A stretch of 64,000 nucleotides of DNA from Eledone cirrhosa. Lineage: Eukaryota. Below are positions 1-43,640 of the stretch, in pieces. Under the pieces are notes generated by a model. The model searched no databases. It saw nothing but the letters and a program-made list of their open reading frames with translations, and was not told the origin of the DNA. Position numbers and translations under genes: made by a program. Location: assembly GCA_964016885.1 (NCBI GenBank), contig OZ024757.1, forward strand, positions 9,548,001 through 9,612,000. The letters run 5' to 3'. Within the stretch, counting starts at the first letter, position 1; each line of letters begins with the position of its first letter.

Positions 1-2506
1 AGGTAGCAAGTAAGGACGAACTGGAAAAAATGAATACAGAGGCATCTTGTATAATGCATGAATTAGACATTGAGAATAAAACACAACCCTTCATGCCTAG
101 GAAACCCAAAATCAATATGAAAGATCACAAATGAAATTTTGAAAATGATTTGCCAGTCAGATTGATTGCACCATCAAAATCTGACATGGGAAAACTTAGC
201 AAAAACATTCTAGACAGGGTAAATTAAAAACTTACATAGTTTACCTTACTTAAAGTTATGGAAGGGGACTGGTGAGGTTATTGAGTGGTTTAAAGAAATT
301 AAATATAACTATAATAATAAGTTTATTCAACTTGATATTGCTAACTACTATTCATCTATCACTCCTAATCTACTGAATAAGGCACTAAATTACGCATTTA
401 AACATACAGACCTAACTAGCAATGAAATGCACATTATATTATCGGCAAGGAAAACATTGATAGAATTTAATAACCAACTATGGACTAGGCCAGATAGAAA
501 TAATAATTTCAGCATAACTATGGGATCATATGACTCAGCTCAGGTAACGGATTTTGTGGACCTATTTATAATTAATTCGCTGCATAAAAAAATACCAGGT
601 GTAACCGGAGGATTATATCGTGATGAAATGCTTTTACTTATTGAAAATAATAACTGTGAACTAAATAGAAAAAGAAAACAAATTATACAATTTTTTAATT
701 ACCTTAATCTAAAAATAGAAATAGAGAATAACCATAGAATAGTCATTTTCCTGGATGTAACACTAAATCTCAACACATGTCTTCACTATCCATTTCACAA
801 ACTAAATGAGAACTTGAATTATCTCAATTTTAACTCTAATCACCCCAGATCTGTTAAAAATACTATAGTGAACTCTGTTCAAGAACGAATTTCAAGAATT
901 TCATCTAATAAAAATATTTTTGATGAAAAAGCGCAGTATTACAATGAAGCGTTAGCTAGAGCAGGATATAGTGATAAAATTAAGTACATCGATAATAATA
1001 AGCAAACTAACCAAAATAATAACAATTTTAATTACGGTAACAACATTAACAACTATAATAGAAAACATTACAATAATTCCAAAAGCCGAAAAAGAAATAG
1101 AACTTCGAATATAATATGGTTTGCCCCCCACCCCCCTTTTCACTAAATATTAAAACCCATATTGCTAAACTATTCTTTAATGCTCTTGACAAACGCTTCC
1201 CTAGAACACATAAATATCACTCAATTTTTAATAGACATACTATAAAATTAACTTACTCGTCCACCAAAAATTTATCACAAAATATTAACAGAATTAATAA
1301 TAGGAATTTAAAACCTAACCAAAATACCAATAATAACCCAAACAATATTCAATTAAATAACTGTAACTGTAGAAATAAATCTAACTGTCCGTTAAATAAC
1401 AATTGCTTAGTTAAAAATGTAGTATACAATTGTAATGTTAAAACTAACTTAAATTCTTTCAACTATGTTGGTTCCACCTCGACAGAATTTTAACTTCGCT
1501 TCAATAATCATAAGAATTCTTTCACAGATCCAAACAAAAAATCCTCAACTTCGCTATCAAGCCTACTCTGGCAACTTAAACGAGATAATCTTAAGTATTC
1601 GATGTTTTGGAATATTGTCTCAAAAGGGATTCCTTTTAATTCCTCATCAGAGACATGTGATCTCTGTGTGGAGGAGGTATTCTTTATATTAAAGACCAAA
1701 TATTTCCTTAATTTAAGGAGCAATTTATTCAGTTGCTGCAGACATAGATTAAACTCAACGTTTAAATATAAATATAAATTTAAAATGTAGTATAATTAAT
1801 TAAGAAATTTAGTTAATATATGAAACCTGACGATAAATCATTTGATTCCTTCACCTTTTTCTTTTTAAACCTTCTTCCTAAATATAAACAAAGATGTAAT
1901 AAACTACTCTAAATTTTACGCAAGATAAATTTCTATACTAAATATAAGGGCATCCGTAGAATCACTGGGTCTTCTAAATCTTTTAAATAATGTTTAGCTT
2001 TTAAATAATTATTATCCTTCTCTCTCTATATAGGACTCCCTCTCTCTTGAGTTTCTCTATATGTATGGGGAATTATTATTCATCTGTTGCTTTCGTTTGC
2101 CTCTCTTATTTCTTTCTCCTATCTATTTATATATTTTTACTCTCTCTCCTTTTCTTTCTCTCCGTTTCTTTCTCTCCGTCTTTCTTCTAACTGTACTTAA
2201 CACTATAACTAAATAATTATAAACAATTCATTATCCAGACAGCTTCCTAATATAATGGTCGCTTATAATATGGTACGTCAAAATTATTTATAAAACTGTT
2301 TATATATTGTATTTTATCTGACGAAGGCATGCCATATTTTTAATATGGTATCCCTGAAATATGTATAATGAAATAAATATGGTTTTATAAATATAGTTTC
2401 CATTTGTTTAATATCGTATATCTACTCCAAAAACTTGTAGAGTGCTTTATATCAGTTATAAAATATTTACTTGTTGTAACCCAACAATTTTAAATAAAAC
2501 TTTTGC
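1..2506 (+). mobile_element. Penelope-like retroelement, degraded (RT then C-terminal GIY-YIG endonuclease, 3' tail with hammerhead); runs off window start
   Basis: ORF 427-1146 has RT motifs (ITMGSYDSAQV, GGLYRDE from YRDD, FLDVTLNL, SNHP). ORF 1116-1493 has a CNCR-x4-CPL linker and VVY...YVG (GIY-YIG). ORF 1602-1790 has CDLC..E..CCRH. Stops and frameshifts separate them. Ends at (TA)n 2507-2543. Confidence 0.9.
2310..2375 (+). ncRNA. Minimal type I hammerhead ribozyme in PLE 3' region
   Basis: Stem I TATTTTAT/ATGAAATA; core CTGACGA 2318-2324; stem II AGG-C-ATGCCATATT/AATATGGTAT-C-CCT; GAAA 2356-2359; near-palindromic loop TATGTA; UH=TA. Confidence 0.8.
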
Positions 2507-2597
2507 ATATATATATATATATATATATATATATATATATATATGGGACAAACAAAAACATTTGAGTCACATTTGAAAAAGGCAAGTTGTAAATGCA

Positions 2598-2780
2598 TCA
2601 ATCAACAATGCTTCGAGATTTGCCAAAATTCATCCCTGCTTGAGATGCACCTTTGTTAGAGCCCATTTGGAGACTAATGATGTTGCTGCCAGCCAGTAAC
2701 TGTTCTTCAGTGAAAAATTGTGCATTCTTTTCTGCTTCTTTAGGTCCTAAGAATGGCCCAGGTTACCCCTTCATACGTGC
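2598..2780 (-). pseudogene. Last exon of a transgelin/myophilin(MP20)-like calponin-family gene, with in-frame stop
   Basis: Translates ARMKG*PGPFLGPKEAEKNAQFFTEEQLLAGSNIISLQMGSNKGASQAGMNFGKSRSIVD*, a calponin-like repeat. Acceptor TTTTTCTACTACTAG precedes 2780. TAA at 2763-2765. Confidence 0.9.
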
Positions 2781-3276
2781 CTAGTAGTAGAAAAATATTA
2801 GCATTTCAAATGTAAGATATAAAGAAGATACATGACATTTTTTTAAGTTCATCATATTGAGATTTTTTTAAGCTTAACCCTTTTCTTACAATATTTCTAA
2901 TGAAGTTCACTGACTACGATTGATTTTCAAATAATTTTTAGAAATAATCAAGAATTTGGAGCGACTTGAAAATAACTAACTTCCTCATTATGAAATTGAT
3001 GTTCATAACATAAGTTAAAAAGTTCTTTCATAGAATTATGATGAAAGGTTTCATGATCATCATCGTCGTTTAACATCCATCTTCCACGCTAGCATTTGGT
3101 TTATAGATAAATATAAATTTTCTAAAATAGTTTAACAGAACCAGAACATGTTTTGAGCAGTTTGATATAAAAAAAGGTGAATTTATAAATAGTAATCAGT
3201 AAGGTGTCACAAAATTTATCTAAAATAAACATTATTTATTGAAAACATTGAATTAAAATTAACTCTGTATCATCAT

Positions 3277-41415: not shown

Positions 41416-41885
41416 GCCATAACAACCAAATACAAATATATATATATATATATATATATATATATATATATATATATATATATATATATAGAGAGAGAGA
41501 GAGAGAGAGAGAGAGAGAGCCATAACAACCAAATATAAAGATATATATATATATATATATATATATATATAGAGAGAGAGAGACATATCAACCAAATACA
41601 AAGATATATATATATATAGAGAGAGAGAGAGACATAACAACCAAATACAAAGATATATATATATATATAGAGAGAGAGAGAGAGACCTAACAGCCATATA
41701 CAAAGATATATATATATAGAGAGAGAGAGAGAGACATAACAACCAAATACAAAGATATATATATATATATATATATATATATAGAGAGAGAGAGAGAGAG
41801 ACATAACAACCAAATACAGATATATATATATATATATATATATATAGAGAGAGAGAGAGAGAGACATAACAACCAAATACAAAGA
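41416..41885. repeat. Higher-order minisatellite, 8 units (inverted paralog of 12139-12375)
   Basis: Unit (GA)n-CATAACAACCAAATACAAAG-(AT)n. Confidence 0.92.
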
Positions 41886-43228
41886 GGATACATCACGAAC
41901 GAGATCGCGCGAATCAAAAACAGATGCAGCGATTCCGCGAGTGGTGTCACTCATACCAAGCGATTCCTTGAGGTGCTGGAGACGAACGGGTACCCTACCT
42001 CGCTCACAGACAGAGTAGGAGACACCAGACTCAAGAGACAGAGAGGCACCCAAGGCAAGTGCTTCCTTAAAATGCCACACCTGGGCGAGAATATCACCAA
42101 CGCTATCCGCAAGGCTCTACGGAGGGAGGGTCTCGACATCCACCTGGCCCACTCAGGCGCCTCCCTGTGAAGATGCCTCTCCAGGAAACCCGGGAAATCT
42201 ACTGACGCGTGCTCACTCAGAGATTGCCCGATACGCCATGCCAACTGTTGCCTACGCACATACGTCGTGTATAAGATAAAATGTGATAGGTGCAACCAAT
42301 ACTACATAGGTAGCACAATCCGACCTTTGCACATCCGGATCAAGGAACACACTAAAACCAGGGCCTCGTCTTTCTGGAAACGCATAGACAAATGCGGAAA
42401 CAAAGACGGAAGGCCCATTGTCACAATTCTAGCGACTGAAAGAAACGTCGGCACGTTACGTATCAAGGAAGCGCTTTTTATCAAACGCCTGGCACCGCAA
42501 ATAAACAATCGATCCGAGAGAAGCGAAATGAGGTGGCTGGTTTAAGTTAACAAACGATGCAGCAACACACGCACACGCACACACAAACGAGACAACTACA
42601 CACGCACACACACACAGTAGCATTCCACCATACAAACATACTACACTGCCAAGACAGAGGAACAAGGCAACAACCCACGCACACACACACACACACACTC
42701 AAGCGAGACAACAACACACGCACACACACACACAGTAACATTTAAGAAACAGGCAGAGAATGGACTGAGAGCTAGCGCCACCCCACTCTCTCATTCGGCC
42801 GCTGACCTCTGCCCGACCGACCCCATTTCACGTGCACGCGCGCTCTGCTGAATAACTCAGATATTCAAAATAACAAACAGCACAGGACGCGTTTCGCACC
42901 TTTCCGACAGACAACCTTTCCCCCACCCCGGAAAAAAACCCCAGTTGATGGATGTGAATCCGAAATATATAGAGACTATTAAATCTCTCCCAAGGTAACT
43001 CTCTCTCGTGTTGTTATTTTAATTTTATCCTTTATACTCTTTCCTTCATTCCTCTACACATCTTATACACACCACGCATCTCAACGTACACCCACTTACA
43101 TCTCTCTCTCCACCACCGGATCTTGTTACCCGGAGATTTACCCATTTGCATTGTCGAGGCTTCCAAACGACTTAAAGATATTTACCTATTAGTCCACAAT
43201 GCTTCAAGCAAACTTCAATACTCTCTTA
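41886..43228 (+). mobile_element. 5'-truncated Penelope-like element of a different, GC-richer family (GIY-YIG end + tail)
   Basis: ..NGYP..; VVYKIKCDRCNQYYIGSTIRPLHIRIKEH..LRIKEALFIK..PQIN (ORF 42267-42545). Degenerate hammerhead at 42942-42971; ends in (TA)n. Confidence 0.88.
42942..42971 (+). ncRNA. Degenerate minimal hammerhead motif
   Basis: CAGTTGA (2 changes from CTGATGA), T-GGAT-GTGA-ATCC stem II, GAAA, TATA, TA. Stem I not evident. Confidence 0.45.
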
Positions 43229-43550
43229 TATATATATATATATATATATATATATATATATATATATATATATATATATATATATATATATACATATATA
43301 TATATATATATATATATATATATATATATATATATATAGTAATAATAATAAATTTGAAGACTAAAATGCAGCGATTCTTTTCTTAAACTTTAATCTGTTA
43401 TTTTACTAAATATATATATATATATATAATTGATTTTGGATGCTTAAAGCGTCCATATGCAGTAGGCCGTTTGAGCACTCGATGCTCTCATAGAGCAGAG
43501 TATATCACAGAAAAAGAGAGAATCAGTGTTGCGATGAGTGGAATTTAGTG

Positions 43551-43640
43551 GACATATTACAATCGTCTCTCTGGCGACCAGCTCTGGGTACAATCGATGT
43601 GATGATCGAACCTGAAAATCTCAAGGTCCTCAGATACGTC
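43551..43640 (-). ncRNA. Degenerate minimal hammerhead ribozyme (minus strand)
   Basis: 7-bp stem I GACGTAT/ATATGTC; CTGAGGA; GAGA (for GAAA); CGATTG (near-palindrome); TA. Stem II junction is poor. Confidence 0.55.

Follow-up and report, generated by a model that had tools for sequence, protein, structure and literature searches.

Seven hammerhead motifs beside dinucleotide tracts in an Eledone cirrhosa contig probably mark the ends of seven Penelope-like families

The stretch analysed here (the window) comprises 64,000 nt of contig OZ024757.1 from the 3.0-Gb genome of Eledone cirrhosa. A sequence-only reading had reported seven hammerhead ribozyme motifs in it, each followed by a dinucleotide tract, and had described them as a dense ecosystem of self-cleaving Penelope-like elements (PLEs) and of retroelements lacking an open reading frame (ORF). 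All seven motif stretches were located on inspection (Table 1), surrounded by C2H2 zinc-finger arrays and RTE-like long interspersed nuclear elements (LINEs); TA/CA tracts lie downstream of every motif at a measured distance of 61-256 nt. The palindromic or near-palindromic loop III reported for five of them was confirmed in motifs 1, 2, 5, 6 and 7; in families 3 and 4, a full stem III replaces the palindromic loop.

Table 1 Hammerhead motifs and the elements that carry them (window coordinates)
Feature	Position	Strand	Description
Hydra-type PLE, family 1	1-2512	+	Broken RT/EN ORF 223-1146, 1101-1493; 3' pseudo-LTR 2192-2512
Motif 1	2310-2375	+	Type I hammerhead, intact; 8-bp stem I; loop III UAUGUA
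5'-truncated Hydra-type PLE, family 2	8739-12132	+	EN frame 8701-9231; short end on (TA)n
Motif 2	11917-12069	+	Hammerhead matching its family exactly; loop III CGAUCG
ORF-less mini-PLE or retrozyme-like element, family 3	26992-27530	+	Family unit 511 nt
Motif 3	27273-27352	+	Type I hammerhead; stem III full; U16.1 to A at 27343
Motif 4 element	27576-27769	+	Two 3'-half arms, folded back, from a U3-A8 hammerhead (Hydra-type PLE)
Hydra-type PLE 3' end, family 5	28535-28884	-	Carries motif 5
Motif 5	28739-28843	-	Loop III CAAUUG; stem II opens with A-G mismatch; one stem-I pair lost
5'-truncated PLE, family 6	41881-43226	+	CCHH-type GIY-YIG domain 42171-42545
Motif 6	42939-42975	+	Minimal hammerhead fold, variant core C3-A4-G5-U6-U7-G8-A9
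PLE 3' end, family 7	43430-43650	-	220 nt; carries motif 7
Motif 7	43551-43640	-	A14 to G at 43567
RT, reverse transcriptase; EN, endonuclease; LTR, long terminal repeat.

Each motif belongs to its own separate high-copy PLE family. Searches with a motif and its flanks as the query gave 841-3045 first-look candidates per motif; 40 matches were given a score, and for each family the 30 best loci were retrieved, many of the best matches being segmental duplicates on the window's own contig, so that the 30 loci of a family are not all independent. Both halves of the core (CUGANGA and GAAA/UH) were present in 25, 30, 22, 26 and 17 of the 30 loci of families 1, 2, 3, 5 and 7, respectively, and the 3' end was fixed on (TA)n in 26, 16, 29, 22, 28 and 30 of the 30 loci of families 1, 2, 4, 5, 6 and 7, the remaining family 2 copies extending into a longer tail beyond the short end. 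Inverted arms stand head to head, one with a long and one with a short end, a pattern already known from PLEs. Several places on the same contig carry segmental duplicates of the window block 25600-29600, where motifs 3, 4 and 5 lie, and the flank of motif 7 is likewise duplicated.

The carrier elements were assigned from their ORFs. Families 1 and 2 encode an RT with a C-terminal GIY-YIG EN, and the hammerhead lies in direct repeats flanking the ORF; both families occur as tandem pseudo-LTR (pLTR)-ORF-pLTR arrangements plus inverted arms. The 5' pLTR and inverted arm of the family 1 element lie 2.1-3.9 kb upstream of the window, and the family 2 element has a long low-complexity 3' untranslated region. 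Both families show the motifs RWR, DKT and CxCX5C and no CCHH; an RWK-like motif, DKT, a CxCX5C linker and the absence of CCHH define the Hydra clade (PMC8557442; this and the other papers are cited for the parts of their text that were available). A Naiad assignment for ORF 223-1493 was rejected because its EN is C-terminal. In families 4, 5, 6 and 7, the hammerhead is located behind the ORF. The 5'-truncated ORFs of families 4 and 5 retain the CxCX5C linker and the EN only; for family 7, a broken Hydra-like ORF was found upstream in a single longer copy, with the EN end only and a broken linker. Judged by these motifs, families 1, 2, 4, 5 and 7 (the last from that one copy) would be Hydra-type PLEs. 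The family 6 ORF has DKG, the CxxC and two His of a CCHH-type EN, and a C-x4-C-x7-C linker; it may belong with the Nematis/Neptune-type PLEs, for which DKG, a CCHH in the EN and a Cys-rich linker are the marks. All motifs run through the C, G and S blocks in type I order, and a permuted type SGC hammerhead, as defined in PMC10085705, was rejected. The sequence-only reading was right to see here type I hammerheads of the PLE kind, from several distinct families that have inserted in TA microsatellites; its view of ORF-less elements holds for motif 3, but most motifs are the 5'-truncated ends of ORF-coding PLEs.

It is very probable, in our view, that each of the seven motifs is a pLTR hammerhead from the 3' end of a different Penelope-like family. 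The PLE EN and RT likely write the copies into (TA)n tracts; in active elements, the hammerhead would cut the transcript in the downstream pLTR, either in dimeric form by way of the palindromic loop III or, with the full stem III of motifs 3 and 4, as a monomer. Among 12 motif-1-like copies, the stems covary: 8 of 22 pairs, in stems II and III, carry double changes, and none of 500 shuffles reached the 23 such cells observed, a shuffle control that related sequences alone can exceed; slid controls were also lower. Predicted cofolds pair the palindromes of motifs 2, 5 and 7 and of the motif-4 parent, as a dimer prediction only. Stem II opens with G10.1-C11.1 in family 6, which also has an unpaired letter after A9; the corresponding pair is A-U in family 1 and G-C in families 3 and 4, the latter two without a clear extra letter after A9.

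Several results weigh against this reading. No hammerhead appeared among the 150 Rfam matches listed of 164 in the window, none was matched in the motif-4 parent, and motif 3 gave only sub-threshold hammerheads (E 2.2 and 3.2). Minimum free energy predictions returned a clean three-stem hammerhead for motif 2 and the motif-4 parent only, motifs 1, 3, 5, 6 and 7 being predicted to fold otherwise as monomers. In families 2, 5 and 7, the first pair of stem II is mismatched (C-A in the long stem II of motif 2) and is not G10.1-C11.1. Segmental duplication on the window's own contig contributes to the best family matches, and no RNA run was among the sequencing runs listed as carrying the searched sequence.

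Most of the copies in the window are likely dead, through truncation or mutation. In the 30-locus alignments, motifs 1 and 2 are undamaged and typical of their families, and motifs 5 and 6 have each lost one stem-I pair relative to theirs. Motif 3 has A in place of U16.1, where the family reads GUC in 26 of 30 rows; motif 7 is the sole row of 30 with its change at A14; and motif 4 is a 3' half only, within a 117-nt fold-back palindrome. The window copies of motifs 3, 4 and 7 accordingly lack the full CUGANGA/GAAA/UH (or U3-A8) core. Changes of U16.1 to A and of A14 to G should abolish hammerhead cleavage. Hence 'self-cleaving', as applied earlier to the whole set, cannot hold for the half motif 4 or for the core-mutated copies of motifs 3 and 7.

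The core of motif 6 takes a different form. A family without the CUGANGA core had been named as counting against the hammerhead reading, and that core is missing from all 30 family 6 rows, every one of which reads CAGUUGA. We class motif 6 as a hammerhead-like variant and not among the minimal type I hammerheads of PLEs. In the family consensus, CCC-CAGUUGA-U-GGAU-GUGA-AUCC-GAAA-UAUA-UA-GGG, each position is held by 28-30 of the 30 rows, core and stem II being identical in 29-30. Stem II is GGAU/AUCC and loop III UAUA in the window copy. The motif 6 pattern has 6,049 overlapping matches, and its reversed control none; the family is young, with 96-98% identity among best matches. A subfamily 69-76% identical to family 6 has changed loops II and III and kept the core, and a sister, 73-74% identical in parts, has a C4 core (CCGTTGA) and stem II GGGC/GCCC; the sister lies at L076:2268-2308, with an inverted arm. 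PLEs of the same lineage were found at 37 metagenome loci, and where sequence behind the ORF was present it contained, in most cases, a minimal hammerhead; the ORFs of family 6 relatives from other animals are 27-40% identical. An unguided alignment of family 6 with 10 relatives placed G5, A9, G10.1, C11.1, GAAA and U16.1 in register and ruled out the alternative register (U3-G8 with A9G). In this register with canonical hammerheads, U4A and A6U are the remaining core differences. A comparison at motif 6 that gave no core differences among the rows listed, with the second organism represented by one contig, is not used as evidence here. At the same place behind the ORF, the metagenome relatives L364, L366, L374, L377, L385 and L388 have A3-U8, U3-A8 and U3-G8 cores.

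From this conservation, we give slightly less than an even chance to the U4A/A6U core being a selected variant that still cuts. The change A6C gave strongly lowered, slow cleavage (PMC3088659), which weighs against it. The other possibility, which we would also rate just short of even, is a catalytically dead relic in elements that spread without cutting, with motif 6 persisting as a signal for protein binding or dimerisation. At two core positions that are normally fixed, family 6 departs from every one of the 10 aligned relatives, stem I is only 3 bp, and Naiad PLEs thrive without canonical hammerheads (PMC8557442); against a relic, the loops change between three subfamilies, all of which retain C3-G8, G5 and A9, the unpaired letter, G10.1-C11.1 and GAAA, as well as the palindrome and UH. 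We found no published report of a hammerhead with U4A or A6U, although such cores may appear in Lunse et al. 2017 or in the supplementary data to PMC4209133 or PMC8557442. An eighth hammerhead-bearing family, present in the window as tail fragments at 43339-43410 and 62531-62611, reads CAGAAGA (U4A alone), with a full stem III, in two copies at locus L269 (2014 and 2117).

Motif 4 belongs to a population of half-ribozyme fold-backs. Its parent has the core UUGANAA (U3-A8, position 7 free), with 1,112 exact matches; a CUGANGA parent was rejected, its nine matches all being fold-back junctions or chance. A miniature inverted-repeat transposable element, or any fixed palindromic unit, was likewise discarded: the junctions vary, the arms are unequal and several PLE subfamilies give the fold-back. 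Among 51 arms from loci fetched for other purposes (two rows being the reference itself), 31 have their first letter in loop II, 38-49 nt past core position 3. Genome-wide, 39,169 arms (26,989 + 12,180) carry the 18-mer that starts at the stop site. By eye, in the first 100 listed per class on one contig, 30 of 100 and about 3 of 100 run on into the parent, a weighted value of ~22% of the 39,169, so that ~78% stop within 15 nt of an Initiator-like site in loop II. The commonest start is the A in TT-A-GTCC or TC-A-GTCC, a sequence that fits the Initiator consensus. The long arm of motif 4 begins AGTCC at 27632, preceded by a G absent from the parent; a G precedes AGTCC in 29 of 200 arms, about half of them not supplied by the other arm. 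Single-arm copies begin at the same place, directly on (TA)n. The fold-backs share their 3' sequence with full-length copies of several subfamilies, and the loop-II stop is therefore recurrent, a property of the template. Strand-switch joints at this stop were also found in raw DNA reads of two other samples; a depth step there in restriction site-associated DNA sequencing coincides with AATT sites and may reflect the library enzyme, so only the joints were used.

We see an even chance that the loop-II stop represents a capped RNA 5' end inside the ribozyme. The Initiator-like TT/TC-A-GTCC of loop II would be where transcription starts, cDNA synthesis primed 60-140 nt downstream would run off the capped 5' end, and two short cDNAs from both sides of the break would join head to head to give the half-ribozyme hairpin. 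If so, the transcript would run from the 3' half of one hammerhead to the cleavage point in the downstream copy and, speculatively, the 43 nucleotides shared would act like a retroviral R. Several observations count against a start site. The stop is a zone of ~12 nt and not one point; T precedes AGTCC in 20 of 46 arms, as commonly as read-on predicts; a downstream promoter element (DPE) consensus was not found at +28 to +32 from the AGTCC start; a branch-point-like yUnAy lies 4-5 nt upstream of the stop; and family 1 has no comparable sharp stop. In families 7 and 2, TC-purine 5' ends 14-20 and 4-7 nt before the core may be preferred, in small numbers; these candidate ends were seen at window position 43650 and at L007, L203, L207, L208 and L346, and at L226 and L098.

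Alternatively, and with a somewhat lower though serious probability, the stop may be a block to reverse transcription, set up by an intron branch point in a lariat, by the hairpin at the tip of stem II or by protein binding; or the hairpins may arise from self-priming at a palindrome. Listed parent variants have yUnAy and then TTTAG, arms extend up to the putative branch A, 4 of 100 listed arms show a long poly-T or poly-A stutter, introns are retained in the PLE pLTR (PMC2377424), and self-priming at palindromes has been proposed for rotifer Penelopes (PMC3846280). A block does not sit well with the extra G ahead of AGTCC, with the single-arm copies that share this start and sit directly on (TA)n, or with the lack of a pyrimidine tract between the putative branch point and the downstream AG; moreover, the junctions lose the stem-II loop, which a snap-back at stem II would keep. 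The widest proposal, which we regard as rather unlikely, is that the RNA of a Hydra-clade PLE starts in its own hammerhead, the pLTR being like a retroviral R: tail-primed synthesis would yield strong-stop cDNA at the capped end, about four in five events would be fixed as half-ribozyme hairpins, which would number tens of thousands in this genome, and long copies would arise only by a jump to the ribozyme-cut 3' end or by circularisation. Separately, the same proposal takes C-(A/C)-G-U-U-G-A to be an active natural core.

The element of motif 3 is a 511-nt unit whose longest stop-free frame is 69 amino acids. Among the best 30 of 2,528 candidate loci, the tail joins the head in at least 14, none has a PLE ORF directly upstream and none has two complete hammerheads in direct tandem; the family is seen as 1-1.6 units, and the window copy, at ~1.1 units, has undergone a deletion and contains a short inverted stretch. 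It is possible, if somewhat doubtful, that the unit is a deletion derivative (a bare pLTR) of an autonomous PLE, made through linear read-through RNA with no circular stage. The absence of two complete tandem hammerheads from all 30 loci and the resemblance of the family 3 ends to those of ORF-coding families fit such an origin; the tail-to-head junctions without an upstream ORF, the full stem III and a good predicted circular fold (z -2.8, 40 shuffles) speak against it.

The association of hammerheads with (TA)n is real. A strict type I descriptor matched motif 1 alone in the window and gave 0.01-0.03 matches per shuffled window (100 shuffles), and a looser one matched motifs 1 and 2 and nothing in 10 window shuffles; the shuffled controls (0-0.03 matches per window) thus do not approach a similar density. 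In a random sample of 80 10-kb stretches (800 kb), 41 canonical hammerheads were found, 38 of them with a tract within 300 nt, as against 29% of random positions, and shuffles of the first 400 kb gave no match. A chance origin in AT-rich, microsatellite-rich DNA, for which one could cite the 15% of window positions with a tract 60-260 nt downstream, the missing Rfam match and the failure of five of the seven motifs in the strict descriptor, is refuted as far as makes practical difference, because the family searches and alignments show high-copy families with fixed cores and covarying stems. Extrapolated from the 41 in 800 kb, the genome would hold ~150,000 strict motifs. The 'dense ecosystem' does not survive this comparison: with the same descriptor, the window has 2 per 64 kb and the genome 3.3 per 64 kb, so the window is ordinary for this genome, at or below average.

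Other features of the window include a 124-nt palindrome at 21552-21675 with (TA)n immediately after it, which has the shape of a fold-back insertion, and long palindromes with (TA)n at the centre at 12503-13814, at the 5' end of an RTE-like LINE, and at 36907-37051. Related arrays at 12132-12440 and 41359-41885, in which a 30-nt unique piece alternates with variable-length (TC)n + (TA)n, adjoin PLE ends in opposite orientations. The C2H2 zinc-finger gene arrays, which with the genome size of 3.0 Gb are in keeping with a cephalopod, lie at 18166-20828, 37976-38587 and 46375-49264, and the RTE-like LINE copies, with a PHD-like cysteine insert and one 817-amino-acid open frame, at 58175-60628, 13625-15616 and 32601-35856. 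A short repeat that occurs four times (8585-8741, 17041-17186, 36636-36821 and 41136-41324) has a B-box-like motif on the minus strand and is probably a tRNA-derived short interspersed nuclear element. An HTH_32 transposase fragment at 52770-53225 is one that we take to be mariner-like.

Hammerheads at PLE ends in TA repeats are published biology, genome-wide here and not locally special. The hammerheads of pLTRs, their cleavage as dimers and the U3-A8 core are in print, as are (TA)n targets, inverted arms with tails and the PLE origin of animal retrozymes (PMC4209133, PMC8557442, PMC6765202, PMC3846280, PMC2377424, PMC7229834 and 10.64898/2026.07.22.740005); we found no published report pairing octopus with hammerhead. 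On the sequence evidence, the motif 6 core and the motif 4 loop-II stop appear to be the two details that go beyond this. The role of the ribozyme in PLEs and the origin of inverted and tandem copies are presented as open questions in the cited papers. The motif 4 family, with a mapped stop inside the ribozyme, bears on how such copies form, and the young family 6, with two changed core letters, on whether PLEs need cutting at all.

Compared with metazoan non-LTR retrozymes (PMC7229834 and 10.64898/2026.07.22.740005), family 3 is alike in being ORF-less and in its type I hammerhead, head-to-tail junction and PLE-like ends, and unlike them in that its unit is 511 nt, occurs as only 1-1.6 units and is known here from DNA alone. 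The motif 4 fold-backs share head-to-head arms, a palindromic junction and an optional tail with the inverted pLTRs of Adineta (PMC3846280) and with Penelope and its internal promoter (PMC2377424), as well as Inr-like motifs or, here putatively, a start site inside the pLTR; here, unlike there, the junctions pile up at one site inside the ribozyme, without a DPE match. No published report was found of a strong-stop together with a Penelope hammerhead, or of a pLTR start site with a hammerhead. With the Hydra clade (Craig et al. 2021, PMC8557442), the elements here have in common a C-terminal EN, the RWK-like and the DKT motif, a CxCX5C linker and the absence of CCHH, together with (TA)n targets, hammerheads, and tandem and inverted arms with a tail, which is 30-40 nt long there and 60-140 nt here; half-ribozyme fold-backs arising at a single stop in their tens of thousands, as seen here, are not mentioned in the available parts of that paper. 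The minimal hammerheads of metazoan PLEs (Cervera and de la Pena 2014, PMC4209133) agree with ours in type I topology, palindromic loop III, pLTR position, a preponderance of single motifs left by truncated copies, pairs on opposite strands and the U3-A8 variant. Unlike those in its main text, the E. cirrhosa families include U4A/A6U and U4C/A6U cores, and their stem II reaches 114 nt and opens with a mismatch in three families.

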